Assembly (NCBI GenBank): GCA_013239625.1
Contig: MU053557.1
Coordinates: 3,750,123 to 3,814,122, forward strand
Direction: 5' to 3'
Origin: Lama guanicoe
Lineage: Eukaryota
DNA length: 64,000 nucleotides
In this document: positions 45,320 through 63,250 of the stretch, one piece after another
Layout of the letters: each line of letters starts with the position of its first letter
Numbering within the stretch: the first letter of the stretch is position 1
The notes under the pieces: model-generated
Told to the model about the DNA's origin: nothing
Databases searched by the model: none
Seen by the model: only the letters and a program-made list of their open reading frames with translations
Program-made: the position numbers and the translations under genes

Positions 45320-45610
45320 CAGCACTGTCCAACAGAAATAGGAGCCACAAATTTCAAATTACATATGAAAATATGTAATTTCAGATTTTCTGGTAGCTAT
45401 AAGAGAAATGTGTAAAATTAATTTTAGCAATATATTTGGCCCAATATATGAAAACTATTATTTCAAAATATAATTGGTAAAAAATTTTATGTTACTAAGT
45501 CTTTAATATTGATAAGTATTTTATACTTACAGCATGTCTCAGTTTGGACCAGTGAAGTTTCAAGTGCTCAGTAGCTACATGGAGCTAGAGGCTACTAAAC
45601 TAGACAGCGA
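45320..45610. mobile_element. hAT-Charlie MITE (MER33/MER3-like)
   Basis: cagcactgtccaacagaa...tttcaagtgctcagtagctacatgg...gctact...gacagcg; boundaries approximate. Confidence 0.7.
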
Positions 45611-47099
45611 CCTAACACACCTGAGAAATCCACCAGGAATACAAGCATTAGAGAGGGGTGGGATGGAACAGCTTGTAAGCTCCTGTCTCGATGCTGAAAC
45701 CCTGTCATGCTCCTGGTACCCTGTGACAGTACCCAGTACCAAGTTACTTTGTTCAGTTGCAGACTGTGGACTGACGCTGAACACACGGTAGATGGAGGAA
45801 GCTTGAGGGGAATCCACCGTGCTTCAAGCCATTCTCAGCTATGGAAGAACTGTGTCTGAATGGCAGGCCTACTTGGATTGGGGAAGTTCATTTGTAATTA
45901 TTCCTCTGCCCTTTTTCTTCTAGGTAAGTTGCCACTAGGCCAATTGTAGTAGAATTCTGTGATCTCTGTCCTTTGTAACTGAGTGAAAATAAGTCAATCC
46001 CTCTGTTTTTCCTTTGTTATCATTATTAAAAAAAATGAAGAAAGAAGGCTTGTAAATCATTGTTTAAGCATGAAAATACAGATTCATCTCAGACAAAAAA
46101 GAGGAAACATCGTTGCTATTTCCTTTGGCAATTCCAGGATATCCAAGATGGGTTTAGAGATTCTATAACATATGAGATTGTATCTCCTTCCTGGTTATTT
46201 CTAGGAAATCCAGAAATTCTATTTTCCTGGCCAAGACATACTATTTTTTGAGAAGTACCTGCTTTGTTATGTCATTTTGAATATTTCATTAAGATATAAA
46301 GAACCAACCCCTTATACTGCTTTCAGTACTATTAGGTAATGTGCACAAAAGACTTGGTTATCTCACACTAAAGACTTAAACAACCCTTGATAATCATTCA
46401 GAGCAGCAGGGAGAGTGTGTCTTAGGGATAGGGTGAGGTGAAGGATAGGGTGGCCCAGAGTGGGATGAGACACAGGATGAACAAATGCCTAGGGACTCAG
46501 TGAAGGTCAAGGGTGAAGTAGGGGTGGCAGGGGTCAAGAATGGGATCAGGATCAAGGATAATAAAGTACAGAATGGACTAAGGCTCAGGGATCAGGGCTA
46601 AGAGTGCGAATGTGTTGAAAACATTACCTGGGAGATTAAAAAAAGCTGAAAGTTGTTTATTTTGGAGACACACCCAAGACGTGAATATAAAACGTCATCT
46701 GTGTCAAAATGGTCACAACAAAACAGCTACAGTAACTAGCAAGTAAGCTAACTTTTGAGTTGCTTCTTGAGTCGTATCTTGATGGACTGGAGGCAAATGA
46801 AAACCAGACCCATCTCACTGATGTTTCACAAAGCAGCCCTAAAATTCTAAACCAGGAAGTGACAAGCGATCCTGAAATAGAACTAAAGAAAGCCAAACTA
46901 TTTCTATCCCTGCTTCCTGGTCACTACCACCAACTTGTGCGTTTCTCTGTGACTGATATTTCAGATTCTATTGTCAGAAAATGGGTTTTCATAGATCCAC
47001 CACTGTCAACTTTCTTATTTTCTCATGTAAGGAACTCACCTGAAGTCTCCCTCTCTCTGTCAAGGCTTCAGAAACAAGTGCAGAGAGCACTTATGTAGA

Positions 47100-53200: not shown

Positions 53201-54670
53201 TACTTTTAAACCCTGTACTGCTTCTATTTAAGTTACTTTTTTAAAAATCTGTTCATTTATCACTTGCCTCATAAAATTACATTTCTGTGTGGAAAAGGTT
53301 CCATTTTTTAATTGAACCACCACAGCAGAGAGTTTGAAAACCACCGACCCAGATGCTTGTTCAGGGACTCCCCAGGTCTAACACCCAATGAGCCATTGTT
53401 CTCATCTCTGCCCTCTACTTAGAACGTGGTCAGTCTAATCAGACGTTTCACCATAACTTGGAGAGAAGAGCACTTATCCTATTCAGAAAAGCTTCTGGAT
53501 TGCATCTCATTGCGGTGCACATGTTTCAAATGCTGATGAAGCCTTGAAGTACATGTCAGGTGTAAGCATTTGAATTTTTACAACGGCATAAACTAAAATT
53601 GTAGACATCTGAGAAGAAGAGGTGGTACTGGAAAATGCAAAGTATGAATGAGCGAGACATACCTTAAAAAAAACAGAAAGAAATGCAATCAGCTACTGGG
53701 AGACCGTAAGATTTGAAACTGGAAGACGTGGTTTTGGTCAAGATCTCAATAGGTGTCTGCTGTGGGGAATTTTAAGTCTTCCAGTCTGTGAGTTTCCTCT
53801 TTGAGAATTAATTCTATTTTTATGTTAACTCTGTCTTCTGGACGGCTGATGTGAAGACCACATGAGACGAGAGAGGTGAATGTGCTAAGTAACTGGAAAT
53901 CACTGGGCCTGTGTTATTGAAAAAATATCGGTTATGCGGATAAACAGAAATCAGATACAGAAGCGGGGAATGTGTTAAAACAGAATACCATGGTTACAGT
54001 CTTAAGAGGCAGGAGACAGCAGGGCAAAACCTGGATTTTTATCATAAATATCCATTTTAGTTAATGAAGTAGTATATCCCAGTTTAAAAAAAAAAGTGTA
54101 GGCCTAGGATGCTGGGAAACTGGCTCTCCCAACTGTTAAGTGTGACTAAAGACAATACACTTGAAGCTTTCTGATTTTGTTGTTCTACCTGCGAAATAGC
54201 AATATTACTCCTCTTCATACTTCATAAAGTTAATCATGTAACAGGTCTTCGGAGAATGCTGAAAAGTGTGCCCACACTCTAGAAAAGCAGGGTTCACAGG
54301 GCTGATTATTAATTTTGTCTCCCACAGTACATTGTAAAGACATGTCCTCATGGCTTCTATGTTCTATGCATTTACTCTAACCCTTAACACCCTTGATACA
54401 TGTCATTTGAAAGTCTGCTTGCTCTTTACTACCCTATGATTTTATTTGTTTCTCAAATATAGTCATGCCATTATATTGCTGAGCCATCAAAGGATTATTA
54501 TGTAAAATATCTTTCGGTAGGTGAGTTTTAAGAGGTAATTGTTCCAACTGTCAGTAACTCAAGATAATAAGGAAGTTTTCCTTGACAAATACAATAAACT
54601 GCCCTAGCTTGGGTTAACAGCCAATCATTGAGAAAGTCAATTTTTAACGAGGACAGGACCCTGCCTTGTG

Positions 54671-54677
54671 TATATAT
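54671..54677 (+). promoter_or_regulatory. Putative TATA box of the small Kazal gene
   Basis: TATATAT about 80 nt upstream of the ATG at 54758; position only, no transcript evidence. Confidence 0.45.
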
Positions 54678-54757
54678 GTGTGTATTTGGCAGACCGCTTT
54701 TTCTCGCTCTCTCTGAACTTCCTGCTCAGAGCAAAACGGCCCTCCTTCATCATCACT

Positions 54758-54824
54758 ATGAAGAGCATCACCGCTTGTGTCATCCTTGCTCTGGCAGCCA
54801 CTACGTGGGCTGCCTCTCTACCTG
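54758..54824 (+). CDS. Kazal gene exon 1 (signal peptide)
   Basis: cactATGAAG...CTACCTG|gtgagt, 67 nt, [22 protein letters not shown], phase 1. Confidence 0.88.
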
Positions 54825-56783
54825 GTGAGTTAGGAATTCTTTTCAGTGGTTCTTTGTTAACTGTGACATACCCAGTACTCAGTAGTTACAGAATGTTAAA
54901 GTCAAAAGAAAATGTAGAAGGCATCTGTCTGGATTGATCAGATTAACAAAGTGGGGGTGAGTGAGACCTTCAGGAAGAGGAAGAGAGACTGAGAAGAATA
55001 AAAGGATTGTGAGCTTTCTGCTCATTTCCTGATCACGATCTCTTAGGTTTCTGACTGGCCCTTTGGAAACTACCTGTGCAAGTTTGAGGCTATAACCCCA
55101 ACCTTACTCTGGGCATGCCCACGGGATCTCCTGGGTACCTGTAAAAGCCCTTTCCCCCATTTTTAAAATCAGGACCACATACACTCTGACTTCACCCTGA
55201 GATGGCCCTGAGTAAAGAAGTGACCTCTCTTAGGTCTGGCCTGGACAAGGGAAATGGGTTTCAGTTACTGTGAACAAGGAATTCAGCTTTGCATTTCTAA
55301 CTGTGGAATTTACTCTTTTTCCAATTCCTTCTCTCCAAATGCATCTTATTCCACACTCTTCGGGTGATCAAGCAATACGGCCAAAAGTGAGTACAACCTT
55401 TTCTGTGTGGTCTTCGTAAAAATGAAATTAGAGCTTGTGGGTAAATGAGCTGTGAAAGCACCTAAACTGGGGCGCAGGGGCTGAAATCATTCCGCAGGAC
55501 GTGAAGCTGCTCCTACTCTCCCTGTCCTGGTGCTGTCTCTTTTTTTCAAAGGTTGCAAAAGGAATCTCCTTGCAAAAGCGCAGTGAGGCTAAGTTAACTT
55601 TTACCTTTGGGTAGCATTTTAAATTTTTCTCAGTATTTTTCACATTCATTATTCTACTGGACTCTCATTATAGCCCTAAAAAGTTGAATATTTGAACAAG
55701 ATCTGATTTGGCTTCAAAAAAAATCACTCTGGTATCAGTGTGGAAGGTGATTTCAATCTCCGATAAACACGGAGGCTGGGCGATAAACCGGCAGATACTG
55801 CAACCATGTAGGCAACACATAGTGAGGGTCTGAATAAAGAGGATGACAGTATGAGCAGGAGATGGCTAATTCAAAATTAGGTACAAAATAGAATCCCCAG
55901 CTGTATCCTATTCATCCTATTCATCAGGCGGCTGTGAACTTGGGCTGAGCACTCCCTTGCTGTGACGGTATTCTCACCATCACAGATAAAGGAAATTGCA
56001 GAGGATGTGTACCCTGGCATGTGGGATTTCGGATTAAATGATCCCTCAAGGCTTTCTAGGATTTAACGTTTTGAAATTGTTTTTTCTCTTTTCCTTTCTT
56101 TGGACAGAGCATAGTTCAGTGCCCCAAATATTCTGATTATACTGTATGCACCTTGGAGTACAATCCTCATTGTGGATCTGATGGAAGAGTATACGGCAAC
56201 AAATGCTTGTTCTGCAGCGCCGTTGCGTAAGTGCTTAGTTTAACATTTTGTGTGTAGGAAGAGCCTCTCCCCCAGAACCGGAAGCCATCTTAGCTACCCA
56301 GTAAGCTAGACGCTGCCATAAAGCGTAAGAGGGAGATGGCTGACTGATAATCATGACATTTTACAAAAAGAGGTAAAAAGAAAGAGAGAAAAGGAGAGAA
56401 AAAGGAAATGCGTAACAAGGAGAAACTGAAGCTAGGGAAAGAGAGGCTTGATCAACATCATAATATGATTAAGTGGCAGCAAAAAGAGAAATTTACAGAC
56501 TTGTTGGCTCCTGGCACTGGCTTTTACCAGTTGACTGAATTCCTTTTTCCCACAGTGCTGAAGCTCAGTGATTAACTGCTCACCTTTCACGGTGTATACG
56601 CATTTGGCTGGCTGGAACTAAGAATATGCAACTTTTAATTTAAGGTCTCTAAAGCTTTCCTTTTAAAAACATGATTTCTCTTGCAGGAGGAGCCGCGGCA
56701 CACTTTTTTTCGTAAAATATGGACCATGCAGGGTCTCCCCGGTGCCCAAGGGCCCTACGTATATTTTGGAAGAGTCCACATAG
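54758..56783 (+). CDS. Secreted single-domain Kazal-type protease inhibitor (double-headed submandibular protease inhibitor-like); exons 54758-54824, 55373-55386, 56108-56226, 56687-56783; 98 aa
   Basis: Signal peptide [18 protein letters not shown]; six-Cys Kazal domain [50 protein letters not shown]; typical SPINK four-exon phases 1/0/2; AATAAA 55 nt after TAG. The exon 2 acceptor is the uncertain part. Confidence 0.8.
55373..55386 (+). CDS. Kazal gene exon 2 (predicted 14-nt micro-exon)
   Basis: tcaag|CAATACGGCCAAAA|gtgagt. First AG after a branch-like ttctaac and a long pyrimidine tract; its 3n+2 length restores the frame. Confidence 0.55.
56108..56226 (+). CDS. Kazal gene exon 3 (Cys I-V)
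   Basis: ggacag|AGCATA...GTTGC|gtaagt, 119 nt, [39 protein letters not shown]. Confidence 0.92.
56687..56783 (+). CDS. Kazal gene exon 4 (Cys VI, stop)
   Basis: ttgcag|GAGGAGC...[37 protein letters not shown]. Confidence 0.88.
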
Positions 56784-56837
56784 AGAACTGGTTTCCCTAG
56801 GACGGTTGTGGGGACAAATCCAGAGACCTGATTCTTC

Positions 56838-56843
56838 AATAAA
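56838..56843 (+). terminator. Polyadenylation signal of the small Kazal gene
   Basis: AATAAA followed by GT-rich gttgtcagggttgtctttgtg. Confidence 0.75.
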
Positions 56844-57851
56844 AGATTCTCAGCAGAAAGTTGTCAGGGTTGTCTTTGTGGATACAATTCTTCTTTTCAA
56901 GAAATCATCTATGCTCATTTTCCTAAATGTATAAATCACACAGAAATATTTCCTCTATTTCTACTCACTTTGAGAGCTGGAGAGATTATACACACCCTGG
57001 TGAGAGAAGAGTCTGCTCATAGCCCCCATTTAAAAAAGACTCATTTAAAAAAAAATAAACATGGATCAAAGGGCGGCTCTAACCATTAGTATTACGTTAC
57101 CTTTAGCTACACTAATGAAAAGCGGAAAATCCAGAGTTGGAAAAAGACACAGTGAGAATCCCTAACACTACAAACGAATTGGAACAGGCCAGGAATAACA
57201 TAATGCTTTAGGCTGATCACCCCTTAAAGAGAACTCAGTCACATGCAGGCATCTGCAAAGGAAGGCATCTTGGTTTTCATTTTGGGGGAGAGTTTAAAAA
57301 AAACAGACTCTAATTAAATGTTGAAATCACTAATAAGGCCTGAGGCAAAGTCAAGTTAGTTGGGAACAAATGAGGGTATATGTAGGACTGTCACGAGATA
57401 GAGATGTGACAACTTTCTGGGACTCCAGAGAGTACTGAGGTCCTAAATAAAATGTGCAAAGATATTTACCTTGGAAAATAATTTTCTAATAGTGAGTTGG
57501 CAACTAGGGGCATAGTGATGCCCTACTAGTTCACGTGTTCAAAGCGCGATGGTTTTCATTTTTCAGCAAAGACTGGTTAAATGCTTGCCAGTTGTGCTGG
57601 AGAGATTTGTGTGTTTTTCCCTAACAGCATATATAGAAAGATCACTAGAGGTCAAGCAATGTGTTGTGTGGGGAGAGGCGCTACAAATGGGCAAAAAGAG
57701 TCCCAGCCATCAAGGCATTTGTAGACCAATCAAACAGACAGACTGAAAGAACTGATTACTAAACAATGTAAAAAGATTACACTCCAGAATTATTAAAAGT
57801 TCAGTAAGAATTGAAAGGAAGACTTGAGGTGTTAGTTACATGATGAGCTAG

Positions 57852-58683
57852 TGTATTAGTCTCCTCAGGCTACCATAACAAAATACAGACCTTCCTCCAC
57901 TTAGGATGGGGTTATATTTTGATACACTCATCATAAATTAAAAATATCATACACTAAAATTGCACCTAACCTACTGAACATCACAGCTCAGCCTCATCTA
58001 CCTTAAATGTACTCAGAACACTTTTATTAGCCTACGGTGGACAAAATCATCTAACACAAAGCCTGTTTTATAATAAAGTGTTGCACATATCATGCAATTT
58101 ATTGAATACTGTAAAAGCAACCAATGGAATGGTTGTATGGGTACAGAATGGTGTCAGCATATCGGCTGCTCACCCTCACGATTGAGTGGCTGACCGGGAG
58201 CTGTGGCTCACTGCCCAGCAACACAAGACTGTCGGATGCATATCGCTAGCCCAGGAAAAGATCAAAATTCAAAATTCAGTTTCTACAAAATGTCTATCAC
58301 TATACAGCTGAAAATCTGTTAGTTGAATCCATCATAAGTAGAGAACTGTCTGTACCACAGACCAGGTGTCTTAAACAATAGTTTATGTTCTCACAGTTCT
58401 GCAGGCTGGGATGTCCAAGATCAAGGCGCCAGAAGGTTTGGTGCCTGGTAAGAGCCCACTACCAGGTTCACAGAGTGTCTTCTTGCTGTGACCTCCTATG
58501 AATGAAGGGGCAAGAGGTTGCTCTCTGGAATCTGTTTTATAAGGGCACGGACTCCAATCCTGAGGGCTGTGCCTTCTTGACCTACTCAGCTCCTAAAAAT
58601 CTCACCTCCTAATACCATCACATCGGGGATTAGGTTTCAACATATGAATTTGTGGGGGATACAAATATTCAGACAGTAACTCA
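57852..58683. mobile_element. MaLR LTR (MLT1A/B-like) split by a Tigger-type MITE
   Basis: tgtattagtc...gctaccataacaaaaTA[insert]ccacagac...tctcacagttctg...tccaagatcaagg...cacctcctaataccatcaca. Confidence 0.8.
57886..58352. mobile_element. Tigger-derived MITE (MER47/Tigger5-like)
   Basis: TA-cagac...gtctg-TA with TA duplication and terminal inverted ends. Confidence 0.8.
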
Positions 58684-60920
58684 TAGGAGACATTTAGGAT
58701 GATGACCATCCCAGCTCATGACTGGAAGGATGGCTGCTGAACCTATATTAAATGATTTGCTTAACTACAAACAAAAACAACAGTCTATATGTTGTAGAGT
58801 ATATTATATATAATGTTTAAAAAATACATGTAATTATGCAATAAGTACATAATTTTGCCTTTTGAACCTACAAATTGAAAAGGTGAGTTTATTTACATAA
58901 ACTCCGTTTTTGTCTAACCAAATTTCCCCAGGAGAGTATGCAAGTCTGGGTAATGCTGTCCTGTGGCTGCCACAAAACCCCTGAGAAGGGCAAGACTTCA
59001 CCCTACAGCCCAGGGTGGGACTGATCATTTGTGTGAAGGTGTTTCTGTGATGGAGAAACAGCTTTTGGACCCTTAAGAAGGGCAGCTCAGTGTGTGCTGG
59101 AGAAGTAACTGGGTACAGAACAGGCCGACTGTGAAAGCTGTGTGGTTTGGGCAGTGGAGTTGAGACTTTCCTTTCTGCTAGAGAACATGGAGCCTTAGGT
59201 TAAATCCTGTGAAGGATTCTGACATCTCTGAAAGGTGAAAAGAATCTGCTTTGGACTAAAGTGAGGAAATGGTTTTGAAAACATTAGTTTGAGGTGACAC
59301 TGGAACATACAAATTAAATTATTTCATAGCTAGGAATAGGCACCTGACATCCAGGGACAAAGCCCCAAGTTGCAGCTTTTGGAATTAAACCATGGGCACG
59401 GTAGATGGTGGGGAAGTCACAGACTAAGGGTTCTTTGAGAAATATGTGATCTCTTAGTCTTACCCACTCTGCTCTCCCAGTATTAGTTCAACTGGAATTT
59501 GGGGGCGTTTGAGAAAGCTGAAAAAGTTTTAGCCTGTCTTCTTTCCTGTGTTTTACTTTTTTCTCTGTGTGCTTTAGGATTAAATACCTTTGCATCTATT
59601 AAACAGAGCCTCATGGTGATAATACACACTTCCTTTTATCTTAGGATATTGTGCTTCACTTTTACCTAGTTGATATATTGGATTTGTATAATTAATTATT
59701 TGATTTCTCCATATTGATATGGATGAGAAACACAGGGGCTAAGATAATTATCAAAATGTCACAAGATTCAGAAAACTCAAATATTAAAAATTGCTTCCTC
59801 AGGTCTTCCTGCCCTGAGTAATTACTTGTTGACTGGTATTCTCCTAACATCATCTCCATTAGGGTAAGGAAAATGCCAGTCTTCTTCACTGCTGTATTTC
59901 CAGTGCCTTAGACAAATCCTGACAAACCAGACTCCCAGATAGTAGAAGGCCTACGGGAACTCACTTCACCAGCGACGCCTTACTTCACCAGTGACAAGGC
60001 AAAGTTGAAAAAAATGTAAATTATTTATTATCAGGTGGGAAGCAATTTCACTCTCATCATTGTCTTTGAATATTCACACAATGCAATAACTCTGTGACTC
60101 TGAGCCTATAAAGCCCTTATCAGTGCTGAGGCAAAGAAAGGGCCAAAATAAATAGCTTTTCACTAGTGGCTAACCTGGATCAAGCAGTTTTCCAAGCTTA
60201 AACCTTAAACCTCCTAAGGAAGGTTTGATTACTCCACTGTGCAAACAGGAAAATTCTGTACACAGAGAATAAATTACCTTTCAAGTTGACAAAATATTAT
60301 AATTAGGTCTTCTGCTTTTATGTCCAAAATCCTTTATAAAAAAACGAGTGCCTCTACCTCTCTGAACTGGGGGACGAATGATTTACTCAAGAAGATGACA
60401 GGGTATTTTCAAACTGTTCCATGTTGTATCCCAAGTACAGAGCCATATGGATAAAAACCATTCTTTCATATTCTATGTGACCTAAGTCCTTTCTGGAAGT
60501 TTCTAGTAGAATTGTTTTTAGGCATTTTTTGAAATGAAATAATGAGATAAATTAACTGAGGTAAATAAAAATGTGTTCAGTCCAGCACTGTTAATTATAA
60601 TGAAAATCCAAATCAACCTAAGTGAGCAATTATGGAAAAAATATTAATATAATAAAAATCCATATATGTGACAAAATATGACCTAGGCATCTAAATTCAT
60701 GTTCTATTACTATTTAAAGATCAAGAAAATTTCACAGTACATTTCTAAGTGAAAAATGCAGAATACAACATATACTACAAAAACTTGATTGAATATGACA
60801 ATAAGAACATGTATGTGTTCATCTATACACACATATTTTTAAAAACTGGAACAATATAATTCATATATTCAACAGTTATCACTGGGTTGTGATTTCATGT
60901 CTTTTTTTCCATAATATTTC

Positions 60921-61491
60921 TGAAGTGGGAGGAAAGGGGGCAGGGCACAACCACTGAAGGAATAACAGCAAACTGGTTAGAACCAAGATGGCAGAAGATT
61001 CGACTTCTAGTAGTCCTTGAGCCTCATGGCACACCTGCAGGCAACATGGCAGTTTCTAGGCTGACCATAAAAAGTCGAAAAGTGGGCAGGGGCCCGATTC
61101 ATGGAAATCCTTACCTCTTCCCCCAAAGTAGTTGGAATAATCCTCCTACCTATTAGCATATGAAATCACTGAGCCCATAAAACCTAATGATTCCATACCC
61201 TGTGGTCGTTCTCTCTCTTGCCTTCTGAGATGGTCTGCACTCTGTCTATGGAGTGTGTATCTACTTTTACTTTAAACTAAACACCCCACACTTCTCAACT
61301 TCTCTCCCTCTCACCTTTCTGAGATGGCCCACCTCCTGTCTATGGAGTGTGTATCTCCTAAGCCATTCTCCTTTCTGAGTGAGCTAGACCCCCACTCTCT
61401 GAAATGTGCATCTCTCTACTTGGTTTCACTTCCCCATGCCTTGCTCTTGAATTCTTTCCTGCACGAAGTGAGAACCTATTCTCCCACAACA
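60921..61491 (+). mobile_element. ERV1 solo LTR (MER41-like)
   Basis: TG...CA termini with 4-bp TSD TTTC (60917-60920, 61492-61495); motifs accaagatggc, gaataatcc...ttagcatat, ttgaattctttcctgcacga; internal repeat ttctgagatgg...ctgtctatggagtgtgtatct; inserted in an old L1 3' remnant. Confidence 0.85.
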
Positions 61492-63180: not shown

Positions 63181-63250
63181 ATGGCCAAATCCTTCCCAGC
63201 ACTCTGCTCACTTTTTTTCTTTATCCTGACACATTCGGCGTTATCATCTG
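63181..63250 (+). CDS. SPINK14: SPINK14 first coding exon (signal peptide); remaining exons lie beyond the window
   Basis: ATGGCCAAATCC...TCATCTG|gtgagt, MAKSFPALCSLFFFILTHSALSS, resembles human SPINK14 MAKSFPVFSLLSFILIHLVLSS as recalled; SPINK14 follows SPINK5 in the cluster. Confidence 0.85.

Follow-up and report, generated by a model that had tools for sequence, protein, structure and literature searches.

What is the small Kazal gene that lies between a long run of SPINK5-type domains and a presumed SPINK14 exon in Lama guanicoe, and why does its product carry only one inhibitory domain? An earlier note on the window, the 64,000-nucleotide stretch of DNA analyzed here, drew attention to it as a relative of the double-headed submandibular inhibitor (IPSG) of other mammals. 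We conclude with good confidence that the gene encodes a spliced, 98-residue, one-domain Kazal protein whose domain corresponds to the second head of IPSG, that camelids probably deleted the trypsin-type first head, and that the product is likely to be secreted and to inhibit, in the manner of a substrate, elastase-, chymotrypsin- and subtilisin-type proteases at a mucosal surface.

Gene structure and product

The coding sequence begins with an ATG at 54758 and ends with a TAG stop codon at 56781-56783 on the + strand of the window, on which all parts of the gene described here lie, and is divided by three introns of 548, 721 and 460 nt, all with GT..AG boundaries. A TATA-like box (TATATA, 54671-54676) lies 82 nt 5' of the ATG and may serve as such. 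The coding part of exon 1 (54758-54824) specifies a likely signal peptide of about residues 1-18, called by eye and from the orthologue alignment, followed by the first mature residues and a phase-1 GT donor; it aligns with the same exon in the pig, bat and carnivore orthologues. Exon 2 (55373-55386) comprises 14 nt behind an AAG acceptor and has the length of the transcript-derived form in pig (P0016), with AIRPK in the camelid product vs EIGVE in pig; at the join of exons 1 and 2 the product begins ...SLP-AIRPK. Intron 2 (55387-56107) is the site where domain 1 of other mammals would lie. Exon 3 (56108-56226) encodes Cys1 to Cys5 of a Kazal domain of the domain 2 type, with eight residues between Cys1 and Cys2. 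The coding part of exon 4 (56687-56783) supplies Cys6 and a 17-residue tail, and an AATAAA signal at 56838-56843 precedes a poly(A) site (56838-56859 for both), which is marked by loose poly(A) ends in sequencing run X19.

The 98-residue product is identical, letter for letter, to an alpaca RefSeq protein (P0011). Exon 3 matches the Pfam Kazal_1 profile with an E-value of 1.5e-10 and 41.3 bits (cut-off 21). Six cysteines follow the signal peptide (C32, C41, C49, C60, C63 and C81) and are invariant in the orthologue alignment; a seventh, Cys7, falls within the putative signal peptide. The six-cysteine profile match and the four spliced exons with a putative secretion signal place the protein, a putative inhibitor, in the classical, SPINK-type Kazal family. 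The earlier note had described a complete four-exon gene with signal peptide, six-cysteine Kazal domain, stop codon and polyadenylation signal, and the exons, GT..AG introns, Pfam match and AATAAA agree with this description, as does the signal peptide called by eye.

One detail of that description did not stand. The note had placed a GDQA motif at the N-terminus of the product; the GDQ codons (55364-55372) form the 3' end of intron 1 and follow GG rather than AG, so that a GDQA-bearing product of 101 aa would need a non-canonical acceptor, and a transcript contig joins exon 1 directly to 55373. Mustelid and some ruminant entries (P0210, P0194, P0190) use a longer exon 2, to which the GDQ stretch is homologous. 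The idea that the GG marks a broken exon 2 acceptor in a decaying gene was rejected, because this part of the intron is also present in pig, whose exon 2 is equally long, and because of the contig joining exon 1 to 55373.

Exon 3 starts amid four AG acceptors crowded into 14 nt (56106-56119), one of which would permit an in-frame join of exon 1 to exon 3. Open frames result both from skipping of exon 2 (91 aa) and from use of a long exon 2 (134 aa); no join for either form is among the contig joins listed. Repeats at the locus are unremarkable, and the stretches at 57860-58690 and 60950-61480 resemble transposon or LTR remnants by eye.

Spliced and polyadenylated transcripts

Four of 24 sequencing runs were compared with the window: X8 (DNA), X15, X17 and X19. 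Together the camel-like runs X17 and X19 cover all three splice joins. In X19, 54824 is joined to the first letters of exon 2 (55373-55382), the GT..AG join 56226-56687 is seen in 15 contigs, 11 contigs have a loose poly(A) end behind 56859, and contig cover starts in the 54603-54703 bin; in X17, 55386 is joined to exon 3. Exon 4 is uncovered in X17, but the records are filtered, so its absence there is uninformative. The RNA status of X17 and X19 is a guess, with which the joins and poly(A) ends fit, as expected of cDNA. Neither splice joins nor poly(A) were seen in X8 and X15; X15, labelled RNA, is one unspliced contig spanning the whole stretch examined and is not evidence of transcription. 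X15 differs from the window at 83 of 3001 bases, and many of these differences recur in X17 and X19. The source of the spliced contigs is a relative approximately 97% alike, not the species of the window itself; exon 3 begins with AGG in X17, which fits the Arg of the Camelus models. The search for spliced transcripts, proposed in the earlier note as a check on the gene being a pseudogene, thus gave a positive result in this relative.

Orthology with the double-headed inhibitor

A profile search returned 792 matches, the best 120 of which include two-domain orthologues from marsupials to primates. Among the matches listed are marsupials, armadillo, anteater, elephant, tree shrew, primates, shrew, mole and bats, together with carnivores, pangolin, horse, rhino, pig and ruminants; neither whale, hippo or rodent sequences nor a two-domain camelid protein are among the best 120 of 792. 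A search with exon 3 recovered a dromedary protein at 90%; annotations of the gene already exist for four camelid species. The closest non-camelid relatives are two-domain proteins of pig and a bat.

The camelid domain is 69-71% identical to artiodactyl second domains vs 44% to the best first domain, and exon 3 scores 61.6 bits against a domain 2 profile vs 31.6 bits against a domain 1 profile. In a tree of 101 domains built from 55 alignment columns, without SPINK6 or SPINK9 sequences and with a bootstrap that had not settled, the camelid domain falls inside a branch of second domains and ovomucoid third domains (support 100/99) and groups with the second domains of pig, peccary and ruminants (82/96). 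A chimeric exon, part domain 1 and part domain 2, is disfavoured by the tree and by the difference between the two profile scores.

Because some gene models read through introns, orthology could also be tested outside the domain. Intron 1 matches intron-derived residues of pig and bat models with scores of 54 and 96, and the 3' UTR matches the pig read-through beyond the stop codon with a score of 73; in each case none of 100 shuffles scored as high. Matches to the two-domain orthologues of non-camelids extend over exon 1, intron 1, the last exon and the 3' UTR, and common descent with IPSG is indicated both by these shared parts and by the position of the domain on the domain 2 branch.

The gene is the camelid orthologue of IPSG and not an extra gene. 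The description of an "extra", "lineage-restricted" gene in the earlier note finds no support; this is an ordinary orthologue annotated in four camelid species, with two-domain counterparts from marsupials to primates. Its proposal of a single-headed relative of the submandibular inhibitor that has retained the second head is upheld by tree and identities alike, and the best hits are not a named single-domain SPINK. The gene, its family and the camelid RefSeq model were already known; apart from the neat loss of a domain, there is nothing unusual about the gene.

Later versions of the camelid models carry N-terminal extensions (128 and 207 aa), the frame of which is not continuous in the window. 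Of these, the alpaca version (207 aa) includes 85 further codons from a frame upstream at 45534-45788, and the dromedary version (128 aa) is longer by 30 residues. Ahead of the ATG (54691-54757) the window has 8 nt fewer than the extended models imply, which changes the frame; the extensions are therefore probably not real coding sequence.

Several further entries were noted in the searches. One human nr entry, which was found together with chimpanzee and baboon models (P0204, P0203, P0216), bears the name "double-headed serine protease inhibitor Kazal-type protein"; it has 135 aa and two domains, and in domain 2 Leu stands before His-Cys3 where Pro is usual. The term "double-headed" does not occur in a SPINK review (PMC8873584). 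Multi-domain Kazal proteins dominated a search of 50% representatives, in which four of 150 matches were considered, and a protein atlas gave only generic Kazal clusters. A metagenome scan gave four loci; the one examined (L001) reads as a bird ovomucoid locus, and no mammalian orthologue locus was identified. At about 4610-6040 of L001, 3' of the ovomucoid gene, there are by eye exons resembling a one-domain Kazal gene with a C-T-L-E-Y loop, and this small candidate gene resembles a cormorant protein (P0007). Two multi-Kazal proteins filed under Clostridioides difficile and Corynebacterium glutamicum (P0217, P0264) come from contigs of less than 1 kb and are probably contamination.

Probable loss of the first domain

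We inspected 59 non-camelid mammal sequences. A strict two-domain pattern was scored in 53/59, and on reading, the remaining six included, two domains are present in all 59. For the tree and the tallies 45 sequences were kept and 14 dropped, for the most part near-duplicates, alternative models or additional species from groups already represented; the marsupial paralogue P0269, with Asp at P1 of domain 1, was among those dropped from the tally. The P1 residue of domain 1 is Arg or Lys in 45/45 (Arg 34, Lys 11), and that of domain 2 is Met in 35, Leu in eight and Lys in two. The two Lys cases are horse and rhino (P0195 from Equus; P0184 and P0237 from Diceros), in which both heads would be of the trypsin type, a shift opposite to that of the camelids.

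The camelid gene has one domain and so departs from the IPSG architecture, two tandem Kazal domains of which the first has Arg or Lys at P1. A six-frame search of 36000-64000 with the domain 1 profile gave nothing above 6 bits except exon 3 itself, and the transcript contigs join exon 2 straight to exon 3 with no domain 1 between them. As candidates for domain 1 remnants, the introns were aligned locally with the first domains of pig, bat and wombat; the best score of 36, equalled or exceeded in 2-3 of 100 shuffles and found among 50 comparisons, was read as chance.

Among the sequences compared, the one-headed architecture is found only in camelids and probably arose by loss of domain 1. Since every other sampled lineage has two heads, the simplest reading of these sequences would be that the camelid ancestor deleted domain 1, not that a one-domain state is ancestral, and since both Camelus and the Lamini have the 98-aa form, the loss predates their split. 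Other one-headed lineages may exist, as the two-domain search profile ranks two-domain proteins first and the reading covers the best 120 of 792 matches; a one-domain query found no other one-headed form among eight matches from 15 candidates, which is weak evidence. In a literature search that left subscription and older papers, including the original IPSG biochemistry, largely uncovered, we found no paper on the camelid domain loss.

Reactive site and predicted specificity

In Kazal inhibitors a loop braced by disulphides enters the active site of the protease as a substrate would, with the P1 residue filling the S1 pocket. In the dog inhibitor, trypsin is the target of domain 1, and chymotrypsin, elastase and subtilisin are those of domain 2. 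The reactive site of the camelid protein, C-T-L|E-Y (C41-T42-L43|E44-Y45), is encoded at 56147-56161, with the P1 residue Leu43 at 56153-56155. Both this assignment and the likeness to OMTKY3 claimed in the earlier note hold, the P3-P2' residues being equal in our alignment and in a table of PMC3004852, where OMTKY3 is listed as a subtilisin inhibitor. Canonical binding of such a loop is described in PMC3082530.

Single-sequence folding of the product was poor (pLDDT 57.9); with an alignment of 53 sequences the Kazal core was modeled at a pLDDT of 85-90. The predicted structure has the small sheet, the central helix and the exposed loop after Cys2 that define the Kazal fold. Its best structural match in Foldseek is 1ppf, OMTKY3 bound to leukocyte elastase (E 6e-5), followed by complexes of OMTKY3 with chymotrypsin and with SGPB (Streptomyces protease B); nearly all of the 29 PDB matches at E <= 0.001 are ovomucoid domains.

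We propose that Leu43 would occupy the S1 pocket in enzymes of the elastase, chymotrypsin or subtilisin type, and that the protein likely still blocks such enzymes, a specificity suggested by the OMTKY3-like loop. The camelid ancestor would have deleted the first, trypsin-type head, and anti-trypsin activity was likely lost with it; the remaining head may act as a secreted, substrate-like inhibitor on a mucosal surface. As to the site, dog and pig orthologues are reported in saliva in PMC6008695, PMC6789591 and PMC9388946. The shrew orthologue is given as the top submaxillary transcript, yet as scarce in saliva, in PMC7486961, and a sheep gene of this name stands in an expression table of gastrointestinal infection in PMC12647157. 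From these reports we infer a salivary or mucosal role in camelids.

Alternatively, after the loss of domain 1 the protein may have been retooled for a new target or tissue, such as the foregut, the airway or the reproductive tract, and the ancestral salivary job may be gone. The stem branch of the camelid domain, at 0.6 vs 0.04-0.29 for other artiodactyl second domains, would fit such a change, as would a two-residue insertion that brings the Cys1-Cys2 spacer to eight (0/45 other second domains), the Leu at P1 vs Met in 35/45 others, and the lack of any core change since the Camelus-Lamini split. However, the loop C-T-L-E-Y-N-P-H-C is also found in wombat and in a cormorant protein, and peccary has Leu at P1, so the camelid loop is within the usual range of the family; we consider retooling unlikely. 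A bolder form of it, in which camelids dropped the anti-trypsin head kept by other therians, rapidly rebuilt and then froze the remaining one as an inhibitor dedicated to elastase or microbial proteases, its target or tissue being new, and did so possibly in connection with their separately evolved foregut fermentation, is a speculation that we would give similarly long odds.

Paralogy and decay as alternatives

The gene might instead be a separate one-domain paralogue, SPINK9- or SPINK6-like or a partial duplicate, with the true two-domain gene elsewhere or lost. In this direction point one dromedary RefSeq model labelled "serine protease inhibitor Kazal-type 9-like", SPINK6 as the second-best solved-structure match by sequence, and the long camelid branch. 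The earlier version of the same dromedary model bears the double-headed name, however, and the two-domain genes of non-camelids match the camelid gene in exon 1, intron 1, the last exon and the 3' UTR. The tree, in which SPINK6 and SPINK9 are not represented, nests the domain among artiodactyl second domains, and the best 120 of 792 matches hold no two-domain camelid protein. PMC3014083 describes SPINK9 as an inhibitor of KLK5 with a His-Met reactive bond; by comparison with this published bond, the camelid protein has Leu-Glu at P1-P1'. We regard a paralogue as very improbable.

The core from C32 to C81 shows no amino-acid changes between the window and alpaca on one side and Camelus on the other, where about 3.3 would be expected at a local DNA divergence of 2.8% (P ~0.04), in a rough test whose core was chosen after the alignment had been seen. 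For the whole protein, four changes vs 6.2 expected are not significant (P 0.26), and in the linker and tail the rate of change is close to neutral. The stretch that encodes the 17-residue tail belongs to the 3' UTR in pig, dog, horse and human; as C-terminal tails of varied length are present in intact orthologues such as those of Microcebus, Diceros and Condylura, the tail is no sign of decay. That the gene is a transcribed but decaying remnant, with domain 1 lost, the stop shifted and function relaxed, as the domain loss, the tail, the long branch and the overall rate of change might suggest, is hardly to be believed of a gene with frame, six cysteines and all splice sites intact in Vicugna, Camelus and the window, an unchanged core, a spliced and polyadenylated transcript, tails like those of intact orthologues, and an AAG acceptor that yields the same exon 2 length as in pig.

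Comparison with known inhibitors

The camelid gene opens no new mechanism. Its product set beside pig domains 1 and 2 would reveal which head matters, and the comparison flags a misnaming in the databases, where a one-domain protein is called "double-headed" or "SPINK9-like". The 98-aa RefSeq models of the same gene are XP_015094906.1 from Vicugna pacos, identical to the window product, and XP_010954371.1 / XP_014415399.1 and XP_010987762.1 from Camelus, which are 95-96% identical to it; camelid models are named "double-headed ...-like" though they have one domain.

Within the cluster, 13 SPINK5-type domains lie upstream at positions 748-35275, and, in line with the earlier note, all have Arg or Lys at P1 (Arg 12, Lys 1). 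For one of them the best solved matches are human SPINK5 domains. SPINK5 (LEKTI) shares cluster and Kazal family with the camelid gene but differs in these P1 residues (13/13) and is distant in the tree. Downstream, a signal-peptide-like exon at 63181-63250 with a phase-1 GT donor is presumably exon 1 of SPINK14, the remainder lying beyond the window. SPINK6, SPINK9 and SPINK14 belong to the same gene cluster and family, and the first two have been described as inhibitors of kallikreins.

OMTKY3, the third domain of a bird egg-white protein, resembles the camelid protein in its classical Kazal fold and in the residues C-T-L-E-Y at P3-P2'; the two differ at P3', with Arg in OMTKY3 and Asn in the camelid, and are about 50% identical, and we claim no orthology between their genes. 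The closest parallel is IPSG, which shares with the camelid gene the signal exon, the short exon 2, intron 1, the last exon, the 3' UTR and a hydrophobic P1 in domain 2, and whose second domain is 69-71% identical to the camelid domain in pig, peccary and ruminants. While IPSG of other mammals has approximately 130-145 aa, an Arg/Lys head and a Cys1-Cys2 spacer of 5-7 residues, the camelid protein has 98 aa, no domain 1, a spacer of eight and a C-terminal tail of 17 residues.
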